A DNA stretch of 64,000 nt from a virus (lineage: Duplodnaviria > Caudoviricetes): the IMG/VR virus record IMGVR_UViG_3300026549_000036, one strand, 5' to 3'. Of the stretch, positions 23,838 through 60,850 are shown one piece after another (the first letter of the stretch is position 1; each line of letters opens with the position of its first letter). The notes beneath the pieces were generated by a model. It was not told the origin of the DNA and made no database searches. It was given only the letters and a program-made list of their open reading frames with translations. The translations under genes and the position numbers were made by a program.

Positions 23838-25169
23838 ATGATTGGAAAGTTTACAGAATGGGTTAATGCTAATAATATACTAGACGAAGCAAATTTTATT
23901 GTTGATGTAAACAAGACTAAAGCTACTGACCACCATTCACCAACTTATTTTGAGATAACATATCTTGATAAAATTAAGAAGATTTTGTTAGATGGAAAGC
24001 CAATTTTTCTTGACGTTCCAAAGAACATTACAATAAATGATGTTACTACTGAAAAATATGATTATTTGACAATTAAAGATTTCAAAGCAAAAGATTTGGA
24101 AAAAGCAAAAACATATACTGATTTTTGTAATTCTTTAAATATGAAATCACAAAAGGTCAGAGCATTACATCTAAATCAAAGTAATTTCGTAAGTCATATT
24201 TGGAAAGGTTCTTTCAGTAATCGTGGTAATAGTTCATCTAAAGGTGGTGTTTTTGAAGTATTGCTTACTAGAGCACTTGAACAATACCAACAAGACCCAA
24301 AGAAAGTAGAAGCACGATATAAGACTGCTATTGAAAAAATCCTTAAAATTATTGGACTAAAAGACAAGTCTAAATTTAAGAAATGGGATGTTAAGAACAA
24401 TGGTAACAACCGTTCTAAACGATTGAATTCTTTGTATGCTAATTTGGAATCAATATCTGATATTACCAAATTGGAATTTGAAGAAGAAGAGCATAACATT
24501 GGTAAGACAGTTTCCGATTTGATTATTACTGCCCCAAATGGTACTGAATTTTATTTGTCTTTGAAACACGGTAGCACAAATGAAATTGTAAACTTTGGCG
24601 CAGCTAAAATTAGAAAATCACTTGAACAACTTTACAATGACTATGTGGCTAAAGGCGAAAAACCAAATTCTATTAACTCATTAGCTTCAACATTCTTAAA
24701 GAATTATTGTAAGGTATTTAACCTTAATCTTGCTAAATTGTTAGCAAGTTATGATTTGGTTAGTAATGATAAAGAGCCACAACTAAAAACATTTGATAAA
24801 TTAAAGAACACTAAGTGCAGTAACAGTGGTGTTATTTCCGAACAATTATCTAAACTAATTGCTTATTGTATCGGCTATGGTTACATTTATGTTCACGATA
24901 CTGGTAAAGAAATTGAAGTCATTGACATAATGGAAAATGAAGATTTGGCAGAAATGATTAGAAAATACTCTGGTAACTATAATGTAAAATATGCTTGTGA
25001 TACTGGTGCTAAAACTGTATTTGATTTTGACTTGTGCGACAAGAAAGATAAAAAAGACATTTTCATTCCACAGTCAAGATTTGAATTAAGACCAAATGCT
25101 GGTGCTGAAATTAACTTGTTCTCATTGAAGTTAAATATAAACGCCTCCGAAATGGGTAATAATGGCTGA
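23838..25169 (+). CDS. putative PD-(D/E)XK (restriction-like) endonuclease
   Basis: GGVFE...SDLII...LSLK; overlaps the adjacent MTase gene. Confidence 0.5.
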   Translation: MIGKFTEWVNANNILDEANFIVDVNKTKATDHHSPTYFEITYLDKIKKILLDGKPIFLDVPKNITINDVTTEKYDYLTIKDFKAKDLEKAKTYTDFCNSLNMKSQKVRALHLNQSNFVSHIWKGSFSNRGNSSSKGGVFEVLLTRALEQYQQDPKKVEARYKTAIEKILKIIGLKDKSKFKKWDVKNNGNNRSKRLNSLYANLESISDITKLEFEEEEHNIGKTVSDLIITAPNGTEFYLSLKHGSTNEIVNFGAAKIRKSLEQLYNDYVAKGEKPNSINSLASTFLKNYCKVFNLNLAKLLASYDLVSNDKEPQLKTFDKLKNTKCSNSGVISEQLSKLIAYCIGYGYIYVHDTGKEIEVIDIMENEDLAEMIRKYSGNYNVKYACDTGAKTVFDFDLCDKKDKKDIFIPQSRFELRPNAGAEINLFSLKLNINASEMGNNG

Positions 25170-26034
25170 ATTAGATAAATTTTATACAAACAAAAATATA
25201 GCAAAAAATTGTGTAGAAACCCTACACAATTTTCTTGTCATTGACACAAACGATTGTTTTCTTGAACCTACGGCAGGTGACGGTGCGTTCCTTGATTATT
25301 TGACTAACTACGAAGCATACGATTTAAAACCCGAAGACCCTAGAGTTATTGAACAAGACATTTTTAAGTTCGTTCCTAATAGAACAAATTATATTACGAT
25401 TGGAAACCCTCCATTCGGTAAGAGAAGCAAACTTGCTATTGATGTATTCAATACAGTAGCAAAGTATTCTGATGTAATTGCTTTCATTGTTCCAGTATCT
25501 TTCTTGAAATATAATGTTCAAAAAGAATTAGATAAAGATTTTAAACTTATACACAATTACATTCTTCCTGAAAATTCTTTCTTGGATAGAGGAAAAGTTT
25601 ATGATGTGAACTGTGTATTCCAAATTTGGGTTAAGAGTGGAACAAAGTTTGATACTCACCCAAACATTAGATTGCTAGAAAGACCAAAGATTTCCTGTGA
25701 CGATTTTAAGATATGGCAGTACAATGCGACAGAAAGTCAATTTAAAGTAGTCAATGAAGACTGGACTATTGCTGTGTATCGTCAAGGTTATAAAGATTAC
25801 AAAAAGATTTTCACTCAAAAAGATAAAGCAACTGTGATTAGTGAAATGGATGGAAGTTCTACTGGCAAAAAAATTCAATTCTTTTTCATTAAGCCACTGA
25901 ATGATACGGCAAAATCCATTATAAATAAAATTGATTTTGAGAAGTTGGCTAACCGAAATACAAGTACTCCTGGGTTCGGAAAAGCCGATTTCGTAGATTA
26001 TTATAATGAATTAAAACAGGAACTTGGTTCCTGA
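25162..26034 (+). CDS. N6-adenine DNA methyltransferase, gamma class
   Basis: DKFYT, EPTAGDG, GNPPF. Confidence 0.85.
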   Translation: MAELDKFYTNKNIAKNCVETLHNFLVIDTNDCFLEPTAGDGAFLDYLTNYEAYDLKPEDPRVIEQDIFKFVPNRTNYITIGNPPFGKRSKLAIDVFNTVAKYSDVIAFIVPVSFLKYNVQKELDKDFKLIHNYILPENSFLDRGKVYDVNCVFQIWVKSGTKFDTHPNIRLLERPKISCDDFKIWQYNATESQFKVVNEDWTIAVYRQGYKDYKKIFTQKDKATVISEMDGSSTGKKIQFFFIKPLNDTAKSIINKIDFEKLANRNTSTPGFGKADFVDYYNELKQELGS

Positions 26035-26053
26035 AAATTTTTGAGGTGAATTT

Positions 26054-26849
26054 ATGATTAAACCAGATGTACATATAGAACTTTGGAACGCATTTAATGA
26101 TATTAGTTTTAATGAACCAGACCACAAATATACAGATTCTAAAGGAACTTTGTATCAGTCCGCTACCGGTTGGATAAAACAATTTGAAGCAGATACCGAT
26201 TGGGAAGAAATTAAGAAAAATAAAGCACAAAAACTTGGTATTCCCGTAGAACAATTATCTAAAGAGTGGGAACGCAAAGGTGATTATGCAACTCATCTTC
26301 GGTACTCAAGTTCACGCAGTAATGGAATATGGGTGGCAGAAAAAGAACTATAATTTTGACAAGCGATTGAACAAAGATTTTCCTGAAATGGAAGAAGATT
26401 TCAACTACCGCAAAGGTGTATGTAAAGACATTATGAATAAGATGAAAAAGATTTATGTACCTATTGCGAATGAATTTATTGTGTATGACCAGGAAAATGC
26501 TATATGTGGCACAATAGATGCAATAATGTATAACACTAAAAAAGATGTATTTAGTATCATTGACTGGAAAACATCAAAAAAATTTGACACCGGGAATCAA
26601 TGGTCTGAATATATGAAAGACCCATTCAATCATGTTATTAACTGTAATACTTCACATTATTCTCTTCAGTTGTCATTGTACAAATACATTTTGGAAAAAT
26701 ATACTTCAATAAAAATTGGTGAACTTGTTTTATTTCAAATTCCTGGTAAAGAAAATCCAATGCCTCAAGTATTTCGCTGTTTAGATTTTAGTTCTCAAAT
26801 TGCTAAATACTTTAATGATAAGAAAAAAGAGAAAGGACAGATAGGTTAA
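26054..26849 (+). CDS. PD-(D/E)XK exonuclease (RecB/Cas4-like); +1 frameshift at CGGT 26300-26303 (264 aa joined)
   Basis: SATGWI, L-GTQVH, GTIDAI, IIDWKT, QLSLY; GAGGTG RBS. Confidence 0.85.
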
Positions 26850-26949
26850 TAATCTCACCTATTTGGGATAGTGTTTCCACCACTATCCCTAACTTTTATA
26901 AATATATTAGTCTATGTGGAAATGGACTATAAACTATAAAGGAGATTAT
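26832..26949 (+). promoter_or_regulatory. structured cis-regulatory leader with late promoter (HEG 2)
   Basis: three hairpins, TATAAATA 26897-26904, loop-loop and loop-RBS complementarity. Confidence 0.7.
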
Positions 26950-27867
26950 ATGTTTCATTGTGAAATTTGTCATAATGATTTTGTGAACATTCAATCATTT
27001 GCTCAGCATTTTAAGAAACACCATAATATAACATACGAACAGTATTTTGATGATTATATAGAACCAAATACTGACCATATTTGCCCGATATGTAAATTAC
27101 ACAAAAGAAAATTCTTTAAAGGTAAATATAGACAAACTTGTGGAAATCCAAATTGTCGTGCTAAGTGTATAACAAAAACTTGTATAGAACAAAATGGTGT
27201 TAATAATAATTTTTTGGTTAAAAATGAATGTGGTAAATGTAAAAGAGATATAACTAATAAAAAGAATACTGGTTATGAACATCCATTTCAAAACCCAAAA
27301 ATACAAAATAAAGTAAAGAAATACAATAATGAAAAATATGGAACTGATTATCCATTAGAATCAAAAAAATATTGGGAAGAAAATAAATTATCAAATCCAA
27401 TGCATAATCCTGATATAGTCAAAAAACTTATAGAAACAAGAAGAAAAAATGGGAATATAAGTAATAGTAAACGAATTTATTATAAAAATGAAAAATTTGA
27501 TAGTAAATGGGAATTGGCATATTATATTTGGTTAGAAGATCATAACATTAAATTTACAAGAGAACCTTTATCTTTTGAATATAGTTATGACGATAAAATA
27601 CATTATTATGTACCAGATTTTAAAATTGAAGATAAAATAATAGAAATTAAAGGTCTGCAATTTTTTGAAAATAATGACCCAACTAAAAGAATGATAAATC
27701 CCTATGACAGAACACAAGACGATTTATATGAAGCAAAACATCAATGTATGCTCAAAAATGAGGTAGAAATAATAACAGATTGTACTGAATATATAAATTA
27801 TGTAGAAACTGTATATGGTAAAAATTATCTAGACCAATTCATTAAAAGAAAAAGATTGAAAAAATAA
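26950..27867 (+). CDS. free-standing homing-endonuclease-like protein 2
   Basis: C2H2/CxxC fingers, FDSKWE...YVPDF...EIKG. Confidence 0.7.
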   Translation: MFHCEICHNDFVNIQSFAQHFKKHHNITYEQYFDDYIEPNTDHICPICKLHKRKFFKGKYRQTCGNPNCRAKCITKTCIEQNGVNNNFLVKNECGKCKRDITNKKNTGYEHPFQNPKIQNKVKKYNNEKYGTDYPLESKKYWEENKLSNPMHNPDIVKKLIETRRKNGNISNSKRIYYKNEKFDSKWELAYYIWLEDHNIKFTREPLSFEYSYDDKIHYYVPDFKIEDKIIEIKGLQFFENNDPTKRMINPYDRTQDDLYEAKHQCMLKNEVEIITDCTEYINYVETVYGKNYLDQFIKRKRLKK

Positions 27868-27888
27868 AGTACAATTTAAAATAATTAT

Positions 27889-27930
27889 AAATGGCGGTGT
27901 ATTGACATCGCCATTTTCTTTTTGTATATT
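27889..27930 (+). terminator. terminator fused to sigma70-like promoter
   Basis: AAATGGCGGTGT-ATTG-ACATCGCCATTT; TTGACA 27902-N17-TATATT 27925. Confidence 0.75.
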
Positions 27931-27937
27931 AGATATT

Positions 27938-28297
27938 ATGGAACTAAAAATTTATTATAAAACAGAAGATAGCGAAGCGTTCTATAAACGAACTTTGCCA
28001 GATGAAATTACTTCAATTAACTTGTATTTAAATGATTCTGGTGGTGGTCAGATTGAATACTTATATCCACACCCGAATGATGGCAAAAAGATTTCAAGAA
28101 GTGATTGTTTGAGCTTTGCCGATGATGGTGTTACCTATGTTGAAGTAAATGGAAAAGATAAATTCGTCCTCCGTAATAGAAAAGATTTTATAGCATTTTA
28201 TAAGTATTTAACAGATTTTGATGTAGATAAGTTTATAAAAGATTTTAAGGCTTTTGATAAAGAACAAAATATAAACGAGGACTTTGATGAAGATTGA
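27938..28297 (+). CDS. hypothetical protein, DF-tail family
   Basis: ends KEQNINEDFDED. Confidence 0.7.
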   Translation: MELKIYYKTEDSEAFYKRTLPDEITSINLYLNDSGGGQIEYLYPHPNDGKKISRSDCLSFADDGVTYVEVNGKDKFVLRNRKDFIAFYKYLTDFDVDKFIKDFKAFDKEQNINEDFDED

Positions 28298-28648
28298 ACA
28301 AATTATAACTGACACAACTAAACAATGGTCAGGCATTAACTCCCTAATTATACCAGACAGAATCAATAAAATAAATTTATTTTTCTTCGGGATGATAATA
28401 AAGACACACTAGCACGATTGTTATTCTGCTATCCGATGATATGGAACCGTGGTGTTGGGAATAATACTGAAACAATAGACATTATGAAAGGTAGTTACAT
28501 TGTTGTCAATGACAATAAGACATTTTATATGACTGACAAACAAGATGTAACTGAACTATACAGTTGGTTGACTGGTACTGATTTCAATAAACGAGTCAAA
28601 GAACTTAAAGAGTTCGGAAAGAAACAAAAGATTGCTAAGGATTTCTAA
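28287..28648 (+). pseudogene. DF-tail paralog of 27938, frameshifted in a T-run near 28380
   Basis: MKIEQ...INKINLF joins LRDDNK...KIAKDF only with a -1/+2 shift. Confidence 0.55.
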
Positions 28649-29073
28649 TGAAAGATTGTAGATTTCTGTTGCCATTTGTAGATGAATTGCGTAAACTGTA
28701 TCCTGACCATAAGATTGAATGGGTCAGAGATGATACCAATACTGAATACGAAAAGATAAACATTGATGATAAACCTTTCATTTATACAGAAATCGGCCAT
28801 ACAATAGATGAACTTGGTAAAGATAAAGTTGTTTCAGCAAGTATCGTTGTTGAATTTCAAAACTTATCTTCAGTTTCGGAATTTATGGGTTGGAGTATTG
28901 ATGACCCCTATTCAGTTATGAATGAAAGAACTGTACGATTATCATTGTTCAGTAATCATAAATGTTTAAGGGAAATCTTCAAATTTATTTTAACTGATAG
29001 TCCTGAATTAGTCCATAAGCAGATGGAAAATATATACAGACTGAGTGAAATGGAAAGAGACTTTTATGAATAA
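28648..29073 (+). CDS. hypothetical protein, DF-tail family
   Basis: ends RLSEMERDFYE. Confidence 0.7.
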   Translation: MKDCRFLLPFVDELRKLYPDHKIEWVRDDTNTEYEKINIDDKPFIYTEIGHTIDELGKDKVVSASIVVEFQNLSSVSEFMGWSIDDPYSVMNERTVRLSLFSNHKCLREIFKFILTDSPELVHKQMENIYRLSEMERDFYE

Positions 29074-29446
29074 AGAAGATTTATTTGCGAAAATGAAGTA
29101 TAGATTAGGAGCTGCATATCCACAATTTACATTCACTATTAAAGAAAATGCTTTAGTAATGAATAATAAAACTGCTGGTACTTTTATGGAAGCTCTTTCT
29201 GTACCAATACTTAGATATAATAAAGAAAGCGACAAAATGATATTGTCCTTTCCCAAGATTGTTAGCCCAGGTAAAAACACAAGTTCTCCTGGAAAAGAAT
29301 ATATAACACCCACTATTGACACCTACACCTTAGATTACTATAATGTTAGTGAGAATCACATTGACTACATTGTAGAAAATTTGTTGTCAGGTGTTATCCA
29401 AAAAGAAGTTACAAAATACGAAAGTATGAAAAAGGATTTTGAATGA
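29066..29446 (+). CDS. hypothetical protein, DF-tail family
   Basis: ends KYESMKKDFE. Confidence 0.7.
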   Translation: MNKEDLFAKMKYRLGAAYPQFTFTIKENALVMNNKTAGTFMEALSVPILRYNKESDKMILSFPKIVSPGKNTSSPGKEYITPTIDTYTLDYYNVSENHIDYIVENLLSGVIQKEVTKYESMKKDFE

Positions 29447-30315
29447 TAGAAGATTTTATTGATGAACAGAAAACTACGAAGGAAAAGGTTCTTTTGGTGG
29501 ACCTTCATAATCTGAGTATGCGACATCTGTTCGCTCAAATTCCTGACCCAACTGACATATCTTACTCTGAATATAAAGTCGGGATGCTTATGAGTATTCG
29601 TAAACTGGCAAGAACATTTCAACCGGACAGAATTATTTTCTGCCGAGAATCACACGATGGTAACTGGCGAAAATCTATCTACGCAGATTACAAAGGTAAT
29701 CGTGCTGCGGCTAGAGAATCGTCAGTTATTGACTTTAATTCGTTTTTCCCAATTAACGAAAAATTTATTGAAGGACTTGAGAAATGTATGAAGAACTCTC
29801 AATTCTTGACTGTTCCACATTTAGAGGCAGATGATTTGATTGCTCTAACTGTAATGAACGAACCTAATTGGGATATTACTTTAGTTTCAACAGATAAAGA
29901 TTTCTACCAACTTCACGCTTACAAGAATTTCCATCAGTGGGACCCGATTAAGGAAGAATACATACAAGTTATGAATCCTGAAGCCGCACTAATGGAAAAG
30001 ATTGTTTTGGGCGACCGTGGTGATAACATTCCTTCATTAAAGAAAGGTGTTGGTACGAAAACCTTCGCTAAAATTTATAGTGAGGGCTTGAATGAATGGT
30101 TATCACTCAATATGCTTCAGGAATCATTTGACAGAAACACAAAACTCATTTCGTTTAGATGTATTCCTGAAGAATATAAATCTCAGGTCAAGAATATAAT
30201 TGAAGACTTTGAGAAACAACCATTTGACGCCAGAGAATTTTTCAATTTCATTATTGGAGAAGGTCTCGGTGCGTTTATGGATAAAGCAACTGATTTTATT
30301 AACACTATGAAATAA
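29443..30315 (+). CDS. rnh: 5'-3' exonuclease / T4 RNase H (FEN family)
   Basis: WRKSIYADYKGNR, EADD, STDKDFYQL, GDRGDNIP. Confidence 0.9.
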   Translation: MIEDFIDEQKTTKEKVLLVDLHNLSMRHLFAQIPDPTDISYSEYKVGMLMSIRKLARTFQPDRIIFCRESHDGNWRKSIYADYKGNRAAARESSVIDFNSFFPINEKFIEGLEKCMKNSQFLTVPHLEADDLIALTVMNEPNWDITLVSTDKDFYQLHAYKNFHQWDPIKEEYIQVMNPEAALMEKIVLGDRGDNIPSLKKGVGTKTFAKIYSEGLNEWLSLNMLQESFDRNTKLISFRCIPEEYKSQVKNIIEDFEKQPFDAREFFNFIIGEGLGAFMDKATDFINTMK

Positions 30316-30327
30316 GGAGACCAGAAT

Positions 30328-31431
30328 ATGGCTTACTATTACACTAAAACAAGTATCAAAATGACAAATCTCACCATCGCTTATAATATGGGCGGCTTAT
30401 TTGACCAGGAAGGACAGAGGGGCATTTCTCACCTGATGGAACATTTGGTATGCGAAACTTTTAAAGACGAATATCCTGAATTGGCAAAGTACAATGTAGA
30501 ATGGAATGCTTGTACTGGTTATGATGTAGTAAAGGTCTATTTCACAGGTTTGGATAAGTATTTCACTCCTGAATGGAAGCGTAGACTTGTGAACAAACTC
30601 ACTGGTGGTTTGAAAATGAGCAAGGAACGATTTGAAGCAGAAAAGAAGATTGTGCTTCAAGAATATATGGATTGCTTTAATGAACCAGCAAATTCCGAAA
30701 ACACAGTAAGACAGAAGTTTGGTTTCTACTCTCCGATTGGCAAGCGTGAAGACATTGAAGCATTCACATACGAAGATATGCAGGCATATTACGAAAAGCA
30801 CATGCGTAAGCCAGCAAAGATTGTTGAAGTTGGTCCGACAAAGACTGATTTCTCTGCTATCCCAATGCAGGAAGAATATGTTGTTCAACCAATGAAGCCA
30901 AAGTATAAGAAGGATTGGAAACTCCCACTTGAACCAACACCTGAAAACCAAAAGTGCGATGTTTCTTTCCTTTCCAAGAAGGCAGTAAATAAAGCCGATT
31001 ATCCAGCACTCGCTATCGCAATAAATATGCTTGTGAATGGACTTGAATCTCCAATGACCCACGAAATTCGTGAAGTCCGTCATTTGACTTATGGTGTATC
31101 TGGTGGCACAATTAAATTCATTTCTTACGCTTATCCAACCTTTGGTGCTACAACTGATAAGGAAAATAAGGATAATCTTGTGGACGCTTTCAAGTTCTTC
31201 TTTGATGACATTGAAAAGCATCTGGACAAGAAGCGTTTTGAAGATATGATTTGTAAGATTGAAGTTGACCGCGAACACGATAAGATTTTCAAGTACGCAA
31301 ATGTAGATAAAATCATCAACAAGGGTAAAATTCAGATTGGTAATGCCTATAATAAGTTGACCTTTGAAAAGGTGGTTGAAATCGCAAAGAAATACTTGAA
31401 GACCGAAAATTTTGAAATTATTATTGAATAA
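30328..31431 (+). CDS. M16 (insulinase-family) zinc peptidase
   Basis: HLMEH inverted zincin motif, EIRE...LTY. Confidence 0.85.
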   Translation: MAYYYTKTSIKMTNLTIAYNMGGLFDQEGQRGISHLMEHLVCETFKDEYPELAKYNVEWNACTGYDVVKVYFTGLDKYFTPEWKRRLVNKLTGGLKMSKERFEAEKKIVLQEYMDCFNEPANSENTVRQKFGFYSPIGKREDIEAFTYEDMQAYYEKHMRKPAKIVEVGPTKTDFSAIPMQEEYVVQPMKPKYKKDWKLPLEPTPENQKCDVSFLSKKAVNKADYPALAIAINMLVNGLESPMTHEIREVRHLTYGVSGGTIKFISYAYPTFGATTDKENKDNLVDAFKFFFDDIEKHLDKKRFEDMICKIEVDREHDKIFKYANVDKIINKGKIQIGNAYNKLTFEKVVEIAKKYLKTENFEIIIE

Positions 31432-51473: not shown

Positions 51474-52583
51474 ATGAATGGCACAATAATATGTAAAATT
51501 TGTGGTCAGCCCTTTAAAACATATTGGGCTTTAAGTAAACATATAACAGATAAACACAATATATCAAAACAAGAATATTACGATAAATATTTTAAAAAAC
51601 CTGGTGAAGGACTTTGTTATATATGTGGTAATACAACAAAATTTTTAGGCAAAATTAATTATGGATATAATAAATTTTGTTGTAAAGAATGTTATAAACT
51701 TTATATGTCAAAAACAAATAGTAGTGAAACGTATAAACAAAAAGTAAGAAAAACATTAAAAGAAAAATATGGTGAAGATGTAGAAAATGCTTTTCAATTA
51801 AAAATTGTTAAAGAAAAAATTGAAAATACATGTTTACAAAAATTTGGTGTAAAATATGCAACTCAATCTGATAAAATGAAAGAAAATAGTAAAAAAACTA
51901 AACTAGAAAAATATAATAATGAAAATTATACAAATCGTGAAAAAGCATTAAAAACTTGTGAAGAAAAATATGGAAACAAATATTGGAATAATAGTGAACA
52001 AAATAAAATAACTTGTTTTGAAAAATATGGTGAAACAAATCCAATGAAAGTTCAAGAAATAAAAGAAAATTTCTTTAAAAAATATAAAGAAAAAACAGGA
52101 TATGATACACCATTTAATAATCCTAAAGTTATAGAAAAACGAAAAGAAAATTATTATAATAAAACAGGATATTATTATAATTCACAAAATCCAGAAGTTC
52201 ATAAAAAACAAATGTGTTGTCGTTATACAGCACCTAATGGTAAAAATTATGATAGTAGCTGGGAATATAAATTTGAACAATATTTAATTGAAAGTAAGAT
52301 ACAATATGAATATCAACCAAATATAACTTTTAAATGGATTGATTTCGAAGGTATTGAAAGAACTTATCTACCAGATTTTAAATTAATATATCCAGATGGT
52401 AAAGTAGAAATTGTTGAAATAAAAGGAGACCAATTTTTTGATAAAGAAAATAATTATATAGATCCGCACGATAAAACTGAAATAGGACTATTTAATGCCA
52501 AACAAAAATATAATTGTATGATTGATAATGGTATTAAAATACTTAGAAGAACAGATCTTAAATTATTAGGAATAAAATTATAA
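51474..52583 (+). CDS. free-standing homing-endonuclease-like protein 3
   Basis: C2H2, KYG repeats, YDSSWE...YLPDF...EIKG. Confidence 0.7.
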   Translation: MNGTIICKICGQPFKTYWALSKHITDKHNISKQEYYDKYFKKPGEGLCYICGNTTKFLGKINYGYNKFCCKECYKLYMSKTNSSETYKQKVRKTLKEKYGEDVENAFQLKIVKEKIENTCLQKFGVKYATQSDKMKENSKKTKLEKYNNENYTNREKALKTCEEKYGNKYWNNSEQNKITCFEKYGETNPMKVQEIKENFFKKYKEKTGYDTPFNNPKVIEKRKENYYNKTGYYYNSQNPEVHKKQMCCRYTAPNGKNYDSSWEYKFEQYLIESKIQYEYQPNITFKWIDFEGIERTYLPDFKLIYPDGKVEIVEIKGDQFFDKENNYIDPHDKTEIGLFNAKQKYNCMIDNGIKILRRTDLKLLGIKL

Positions 52584-52666
52584 GTTTGGTTTAAAACCAT
52601 TTCATTCTATGTGGGTATTAACAAACTCAATACCCATTTTTATATTATAACTAAGGAGATTAAACT

Positions 52667-56159: not shown

Positions 56160-56483
56160 ACTGACATTAGTGAAAAGTCCCGTTCCTCGGAGCGAACAGC
56201 AACTCAATGTGAGTATCGGTAGAGGGCGGGCCATTCTATAAATCCAAGGTTGTTTATAGATTAAGAGAATCGTTCTTATGAAACCGAATGATGAGCGAGT
56301 AGCGACCGCTCAATATGCCGTCATGCGTTTTATTGAATAAAGCCCAGGTACAGGATGACCGCCTGGTAAGTCAATTTGTAAAATCGCCTGCAAACCGACG
56401 AGCGACAGTCAAAACAAAAATGATTGTCAAACAGAAGTTCGTGCTTGTCTAAAATAGGCAAGCACCCTCCGAAGCTCCATATC
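56160..56483 (+). ncRNA. candidate structured non-coding RNA
   Basis: ORF-free, GC-elevated, at least 8 hairpins with + strand G-U pairs, TATATT at 56150. Confidence 0.55.
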
Positions 56484-60784: not shown

Positions 60785-60824
60785 CTAGGGTCCCCTTCTT
60801 GGGGACCCTAGTTTTTTATAAATA
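60785..60824 (+). terminator. terminator abutting a T4-type late promoter
   Basis: CTAGGGTCCCC-TTCTT-GGGGACCCTAG-TTTTT-TATAAATA. Confidence 0.8.
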
Positions 60825-60850
60825 CATTATAGAATTTAATGAGGTTTTTA

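Follow-up and report, generated by a model that had tools for sequence, protein, structure and literature searches.

A covarying three-hairpin RNA leader carried by phage homing endonuclease cassettes: a candidate cis-regulatory RNA family

Introduction

Homing endonucleases must remain silent as long as double-strand breaks would be too costly for the phage. In the T-even scheme, read-through RNA of the early and middle periods has its ribosome site masked by a hairpin, and an internal late promoter gives rise to unmasked RNA, as documented for I-TevI, I-TevII, I-TevIII, segB, Aeh1 mobE and the T4 genes e and soc (PMC2988022). To our knowledge, no RNA solution other than this simple hairpin over the ribosome site has been described in T4-like phages.

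The leader of the endonuclease gene HEG 2, in a tailed phage represented by the stretch analysed here (hereafter the window, 64,000 nucleotides in all), raises the question of whether such control can be exerted by a more elaborate RNA. A preliminary description, made from the sequence alone, had proposed a covarying 'double kissing-loop' leader around a late promoter, with the same architecture before a second endonuclease gene, HEG 3, and had regarded it as a pseudoknotted relative of the T4-type control and possibly an undescribed RNA motif. We examined the structure of this leader, its occurrence in other genomes, the evidence for each pairing, and the modes of regulation that could account for it.

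Results

Organization of the HEG 2 leader

The leader of HEG 2 (26832-26952, plus strand) is about 120 nt long and consists of three hairpins, H1, H2 and H3, together with the ribosome-binding site. Its parts, and those of the HEG 3 leader, are as follows.

26832-26840 (+): 5' motif, AAAGGACAG, purine-rich
26832-26837 (+): single-stranded purine-rich 5' element AAAGGA (SD-like), unpaired in every fold
26838-26865 (+): H1, 9-bp stem and 10-nt loop (26847-56), of which bases 26849-56 are the anti-RBS
26866-26889 (+): H2, stem of 8-9 bp, usually G+C-rich, arms 26866-73 and 26881-88, 7-nt loop 26874-80
26890-26907 (+): conserved linker with the putative T4-type late-promoter box TATAAATA at 26897-26904
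26908-26929 (+): H3, 8-bp stem with one G-U, arms 26908-15 and 26922-29, 6-nt loop 26916-21
26940-26952 (+): ribosome-binding region, SD AGGAG at 26940-44, target of the H1 loop at 26942-49, ATG at 26950-52
51363-51476 (+): HEG 3 leader, H1 51369-92, anti-RBS 51379-84, its target 51462-67
51363-51476 (+): HEG 3 leader, continued, H2 51393-51413 (loop 51400-05), TATAAATA 51421-28, H3 51432-49 (loop 51438-43), ATG from 51474

The 5' motif, H1, H2, linker and H3 of the preliminary description were all found where it had placed them, with one correction concerning the limits of H1, given there as 26841-26862. The inner arms of H1 lie at 26841-46 and 26857-62, and three more pairs (C-G, A-U and G-U) are formed between CAG in the 5' motif and an invariant TTG on the 3' side of H1. 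Since these pairs form the base of H1, the hairpin extends from 26838 to 26865 and abuts H2 without any linker, and only AAAGGA is left single-stranded on its 5' side. The start of the gene was also corrected, the real ATG being that at 26950 and not the ATG at 26914 chosen by the open reading frame list.

Both complementarities noted previously were confirmed. The stretch 26942-49, between the SD and the ATG, is matched exactly by the complementary bases 26849-56 of the H1 loop, and the H3 loop with the next A (26916-22) is an exact 7-nt complement of the H2 loop. The term 'double kissing-loop' holds only in part: the H2-H3 contact is a true kissing loop, and the H1-RBS contact, which joins a hairpin loop with a single strand, is a pseudoknot. 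The HEG 3 leader follows the plan of the HEG 2 leader with other stems and loops, as had been claimed, and matches the covariance model with 46.6 bits. Its 21-nt A+T-rich linker is identical to that at 26888-26908, and this stretch occurs in the window only at the HEG 2 and HEG 3 leaders (0.01 expected).

All three hairpins were recovered when the window leader was folded with RNAfold (minimum free energy -33.4 kcal/mol; z-score -2.6). A helix between the T-run of the linker and the A-rich sequence before the SD is also present in this minimum-energy fold, yet by eye it is missing from most other copies and was not retained. The 5' AAAGG could pair with CTTTT of the linker in the window, but the two segments are both invariant, and no compensating change accompanies the altered linker found in two copies.

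The leader is part of a mobile cassette

Comparison with the nearest relative, G001, indicates that the leader and its gene were inserted together. The features concerned are the following.

26793-27877 (+): HEG 2 cassette (leader and endonuclease gene), present in the window, absent from G001
26950-27867 (+): HEG 2, 305 aa, zinc-finger and DUF7487 / endonuclease-I-like, free-standing homing endonuclease
27889-27925 (+): intrinsic terminator of the upstream operon, 12-bp stem and T-run; in G001 it follows the upstream gene directly
51474-52583 (+): HEG 3, 369 aa, C2H2 zinc-finger and DUF7487 endonuclease by Pfam
about 52612-52645 (+): terminator-like hairpin and T-run in the sequence downstream of HEG 3

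The flanks 24500-26792 and 27878-30500 match G001 at 95% identity, and between them lie 42 nt in G001 and 1085 nt in the window. The insertion separates the 3' end of a PD-(D/E)XK nuclease gene from its own terminator. Thus the HEG 2 leader and gene constitute a mobile cassette inserted 3' of another gene. The product of HEG 2 matches Pfam PF24308 and PF05367 and PHROG 3339 ('homing endonuclease'), and its paralogues in the window are encoded at 449-1570 and 51474-52583.

The same position relative to an upstream gene was found for the other leaders described below: 21 of the 22 have next to them the stop of a co-oriented frame, 60 codons long or longer, and begin between -22 and +18 nt from it, and in most copies the 5' element lies 0-22 nt past the stop codon of the upstream gene. 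As the leader is situated at the stop of a co-oriented gene and ahead of its terminator, transcripts of the upstream gene are expected to carry the leader into the endonuclease gene.

Distribution and variants of the leader

The search for other copies began with sequence patterns, scanned against collections of viral, metagenomic and genomic sequences, and continued with two covariance models, R1 and R2. Loosened DNA patterns gave mostly chance matches, and only hits confirmed by a model were kept. About 22 sequence-distinct leaders, together with near-identical variants, were thus collected from viral, metagenome and MAG contigs, with up to four model matches per large contig, some of them partial or decayed. 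Searches of GenBank phages, near and distant and at the protein level, detected neither the leader nor a close homologue of the endonuclease.

Most of the genes flanking these leaders have no match to the phage of the window, and a few contigs share replication genes with it at 40-57% identity. Three contigs of 266, 191 and 173 kb (L036, L050 and L066), assigned to 'Bacilli' and 'Methanobrevibacter' MAGs, each carry 3-4 copies of the leader and genes similar to those of the window phage. These are likely to be giant phage genomes mis-binned into cellular MAGs, and the MAG names are therefore unreliable as to the host. Apart from the leaders, the window contains a full-length match to cow-rumen-2 RNA (Rfam RF02947) at 56286-56391 (+). 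The match scores 78.3 bits, above the gathering score of 66, and fits a rumen origin for the phage.

Every intact copy precedes an endonuclease of the DUF7487 type, with the exception of L033, which precedes an HNH/NUMOD3 endonuclease. In the 5' element, GGA is invariant and its flanks are almost so among the 22 copies; AAGGA reads GCGGA in L226 and GAGGA in L221. Wherever two or more leaders reside together (the window, L026, G002, G003 and G005), their loop words always differ.

Some leaders depart from the common plan. At L220:1501-2244 (+), a DUF5662 gene, which does not encode an endonuclease, is located behind H1, H2 and the promoter box without a separate H3, and the complement of the ribosome site is found in the loop of H2; such a leader might be a reduced or recombinant version of the lock proposed below. 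A relic at L227:1501-1660 (+) contains H1 and H2 only, with no promoter box, H3 or gene, and L228:1501-1620 (+) contains the promoter box, H3 and the endonuclease without H1 or H2. We regard these two as decayed or recombined copies.

Two peculiarities of the genes behind these leaders were also observed. The leader-linked endonuclease genes at L019:4434-4526 (-) and L084:1606-1788 (+) are interrupted after 30 and 60 codons, respectively, and resume in the +1 frame; the break in L019 is CGG followed by T, consistent with +1 recoding at CGG. At L010:662-2434 (-), L036:5030-6802 (+) and L219:1614-3113 (+), the same leader is followed by endonucleases of 500-590 aa in which the DUF7487 nuclease is fused to an N6/N4 DNA methylase domain. 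This domain may serve the cassette for self-protection.

Covariation of the three stems

An initial MAFFT alignment of the leaders (A1) was dropped because the variable stems were misaligned, and it was replaced by a covariance-model alignment of 20 sequences (A5) and by an alignment-free partner-swap test. A5 is fitted to the structure, so that the figures derived from it are somewhat inflated, and controls in which the partners are slid share this bias.

In A5, standard pairs occupy 95.4% of the cells (65% in shuffles), and changes on both sides are seen in 21 of 25 pairs; none of 500 shuffles reached any of the observed measures. Sliding the partners by 1-3 columns lowered the pairing to 35-44%. 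All three stems contribute, with both-side changes in 6/9 pairs of H1, 8/8 of H2 and 7/8 of H3; the cells of H2 are paired to 100%, and the three basal pairs of H1 never vary. Individual comparisons are in agreement: H3 of L002 has U-A where the window has U-G, and L017 and L129 differ by matched substitutions at two pairs of H2 and one pair of H3.

The alignment includes 30 G-U cells, with one G-U pair being invariant, and the covariance model scored 157-161 bits on the forward strand but only 31-40 bits on the reverse strand. Because of these G-U pairs and the far lower reverse-strand scores, the conserved entity is identified as RNA of the sense strand and not as a DNA feature.

Covariation of the two long-range pairings

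The partner-swap test was performed with 22 copies. Each segment was folded separately to define the loops, thereby avoiding the bias of alignment, and the score was the longest Watson-Crick match of a segment with its own partner or with the partners of the other 21 copies. The apical region of H2 was compared with that of H3, and the apical region of H1 with the last 22 nt before the gene. The mean matches were as follows.

H2 loop with H3 loop: own partner 6.41 nt, swapped 2.98 nt; observed sum reached in 0/100,000 permutations
H1 loop with RBS: own partner 7.41 nt, swapped 3.89 nt; observed sum reached in 0/100,000 permutations
H1 with H3 (control): own partner 3.00 nt, swapped 3.06 nt; 67,849/100,000 permutations, at background
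H2 with RBS (control): own partner 3.45 nt, swapped 3.02 nt; 544/100,000 permutations, slightly above background

Both long-range pairings thus track the sequence of each individual copy. The evidence is comparative only, and no probing was carried out. In all but one of the 22 copies the loops of H2 and H3 match over 6-8 nt, and the target of H1 lies within -12 to +1 of the AUG in every copy. The duplex energy averages -9.2 kcal/mol in the kissing contact and -10.7 kcal/mol in H1:RBS. Two comparisons illustrate the constraint. L005 and L010 have a common H3 stem and one matched substitution in each of the kissing loops, and L119 has lost the stem of H3 and retains a 6-nt complement of its own H2 loop.

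The folds contained no conserved local hairpin over the RBS, and any masking would be by the distant hairpin loop and the kissing contact. In a nested-model fold the accessibility of the RBS was 0.37 on the long transcript and 0.52 on the late one, a modest drop, obtained with a model in which pseudoknots cannot be scored.

Taken as a whole, the three-hairpin pattern is real and far beyond chance, and it is the comparative tests, not the z-score of a single copy, that are decisive. The covariation claimed in the preliminary description is upheld for all three stems and for both long-range pairings over the roughly 22 distinct copies; the collection of leaders of homologous endonuclease genes, which that description had called for, did not give the absence of covariation that it had named as part of what would refute it.

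A promoter-like box between H2 and H3

Of the 22 copies, 21 have the box TATAAATA between H2 and H3; the remaining copy has CATAAATA and also the weakest kiss. In the window TATAAATA occurs nine times, all on the coding strand (strand bias 9:0), and five of the nine are intergenic as against 16% for 8-mers of the same composition. In G001, 10 of 21 are intergenic against 19%. Thus TATAAATA has the properties of an oriented signal between genes; its activity as a promoter and the site of the start are inferred.

T4 late promoters consist of an 8-bp TATA box with its first base at -13 and without a -35 element (PMC2988020; PMC7892883). From the position of the first base at -13 (PMC2988020), a late start is predicted near 26910, 1-3 nt inside the 5' arm of H3, which begins 3-5 nt past the box. 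A transcript starting near 26910 would lack H1 and H2. The window encodes a T4-like replication module with gp32 and UvsX. Searches for the late sigma factor, with T4 gp55 and PHROG 234, gave no match in G001, which is a 56%-complete fragment.

A related layout was observed at 60790-60840 (+), where a G+C-rich terminator hairpin (60790-60824) and T-run lead straight into TATAAATA (60817), followed by the SD and ATG of a 584-aa open reading frame that is not an endonuclease. The arrangement resembles H2 and the linker, without complementary loops.

H2 as a possible terminator

The consensus scan flags H2 as terminator-like, with the tail TAACTTTTAT. TAAC lies between the stem of H2 and only 4-5 U residues, and H2 of L050 is weak and made of A+T only, H1 and H2 of this copy together giving -8.2 kcal/mol. 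A conserved terminator was rejected as the main role of H2 because some of the H2 stems are weak.

Discussion

A cis-acting translational lock as the favoured reading

The structure of the leader, both long-range pairings, the insertion of the cassette and the conserved geometry are established by the comparisons described above. As to function, our best reading, held with moderate confidence, is a cis-acting lock that would keep read-through transcripts untranslated and from which late transcripts would be free; the block of translation, promoter activity and the start point are all inferred, and no expression data are available. According to this model, transcripts of the upstream gene would run on into the endonuclease gene, and on the long RNA H1 and H2 would fold first, side by side. 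Once H3 and the ribosome site have emerged, the loop of H2 would kiss the loop of H3 (6-8 bp), and this contact would bring the loop of H1 onto the SD-to-AUG stretch (6-10 bp). The 30S subunit would then be blocked and no early nuclease made. With TATAAATA between H2 and H3 acting as a putative T4-type late promoter, late transcripts would begin at about the base of H3, without H1 and H2, and would be translated.

The geometry fits this regulatory reading, as judged from the placement of TATAAATA, the location of the leader at a co-oriented stop and the H1 target within -12 to +1, but the reading remains an inference in the absence of transcript ends, translation data and an identified late sigma factor. 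Two further weak points should be noted. Efficient termination at H2 would leave few long transcripts on which the lock could act in cis, and the conserved AAGGA element has no role in the model.

Alternative explanations

The most serious rival, which we nevertheless consider improbable, is a private antisense RNA acting in trans. Here H2 and its U-rich tail would end the upstream transcript and free a 3' fragment consisting of AAGGA, H1 and H2, which would bind the late endonuclease mRNA, kissing first and then pairing with the RBS, and would limit the nuclease even late. Several observations speak for it: H2 is flagged as terminator-like and is usually the most G+C-rich stem, a terminator directly before TATAAATA is also present at 60790-60824 ahead of a non-endonuclease gene, and co-resident leaders always differ in their loop words. 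Two-step recognition, by a kiss and then extended pairing, is moreover the mode of known antisense RNAs. Against it, TAAC intervenes between the stem of H2 and its U-tract, which is short, and H2 of L050 is weak and A+T-only. About 16 loop words exist among the 22 copies, so that co-residents would differ by chance anyway, and on any read-through RNA the pairing in cis is always kinetically favoured. A bolder version, likewise doubtful, takes each cassette to carry an addressable two-point lock, with a docking word and a ribosome-site word, in which AAGGA-H1-H2, freed as a 3'-end RNA of the upstream gene, also acts in trans on the late mRNA and different loop words keep co-resident cassettes orthogonal.

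Readings without any switch by loop pairing fare worse. In an insulation or stability module, H2 would be a terminator, H3 a 5' stabilizer and H1 a guard of the upstream 3' end, in agreement with the terminator-plus-promoter layout elsewhere in the window and with the position of H3 close to where the late RNA is expected to begin. Such a module leaves unexplained the H2-H3 and H1-RBS loop matches that every copy keeps despite sequence change and the complement kept by L119 without an H3 stem; the partner-swap test disfavours it, and we hold it very unlikely. There is just as little to recommend a protein-operated leader, in which AAGGA and the TAAC-T-rich-TATAAATA stretch would bind the endonuclease or another phage protein, the loop pairings serving only as a scaffold. 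I-TevI provides a precedent by repressing its own late promoter through an overlapping operator (PMC2988022), and the primary sequence of both stretches is conserved far past the needs of pairing. Both stretches, however, precede two unrelated nuclease families and one DUF5662 gene, which makes a nuclease-specific operator unlikely, and TATAAATA is already accounted for as a promoter box. A DNA-level mobility feature, in which recombination would make use of hairpins or cruciforms or a nuclease would target them, is suggested only by the position of the leader at the 5' edge of the mobile cassette. This explanation can practically be dismissed: the G-U cells, including the invariant pair, would turn into A-C mismatches in a cruciform or on the opposite strand, the model scores collapse on the reverse strand as given above, and one pairing partner is always the ribosome-binding site.

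Relation to known systems

The cis lock, as the preferred reading, shares with the T-even leaders an endonuclease gene within a longer transcription unit, a ribosome site paired with upstream RNA (here on comparative evidence only) and a TATAAATA-type box, of inferred promoter activity, between the mask and the ribosome site. It differs in that the T-even mask is one local hairpin enclosing the RBS, whereas here the masking segment is a loop that belongs to another hairpin, about 85 nt upstream, forming a pseudoknot. Moreover, unlike in the T-even leaders, a second, covarying kissing-loop contact bridges the promoter box, and the 5' AAGGA and three hairpins make up a portable module found in about 22 cassettes with two nuclease families.

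In ColE1 RNA I/RNA II and R1 CopA/CopT, transcription of opposite strands yields the two partners, which find each other in trans. The leader resembles these systems in its fully complementary loops of 6-7 nt and in a kiss followed by a second pairing on the ribosome site or primer, and differs from them in that both loops are on one strand of one leader and most likely act in cis, although action in trans, which is not needed, is not excluded.

Closer at hand, the leader of the first endonuclease gene of the window, at 314-448 (+), precedes a protein of the same family and has the TATAAATA box and both loop-loop and loop-RBS complementarity, in the order TATAAATA, hairpin, 16-nt palindrome and strong terminator hairpin. 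A 9-nt word in the loop of its first hairpin recurs right before the ATG at 449, and the complement is in the loop of the terminator. Thus one word is used twice there, in contrast to the two independent pairings of the HEG 2-type leader. This leader lacks AAGGACAG and the TAAC linker and was not detected by models R1 and R2.

In the Rfam scan that the preliminary description had proposed, no family of Rfam 15 matched the leader. Only cow-rumen-2, away from the leader, reached its gathering score in the window, and the best match of the leader by E-value scored 21 bits against a threshold of 45 bits. The full-text literature searched contained no kissing or loop-loop control of homing endonucleases or of phage late genes. 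The motif therefore appears to be undescribed, as had been suspected, with nothing alike in Rfam 15 or in the literature searched, and the structural part of its description as a pseudoknotted, more elaborate relative of the T4 hairpin and late-promoter control is strongly supported. We conclude that the leader has good support as a candidate for a new family of cis-regulatory RNAs and is a variant of a documented T4-type control, its function being inferred.

Implications

The comparative evidence for the pseudoknot and the kissing contact is unusually clean. Models R1 and R2 provide a sequence handle on endonuclease cassettes in uncultured giant gut phages, and the two short address words, which vary freely on a fixed scaffold, offer an attractive design for synthetic translational locks. 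The leader is modular and moves with its cassette between phages and between nuclease families. If the bolder reading with action in trans were true, it would represent a natural, portable and reprogrammable family of riboregulators spread by selfish genes.
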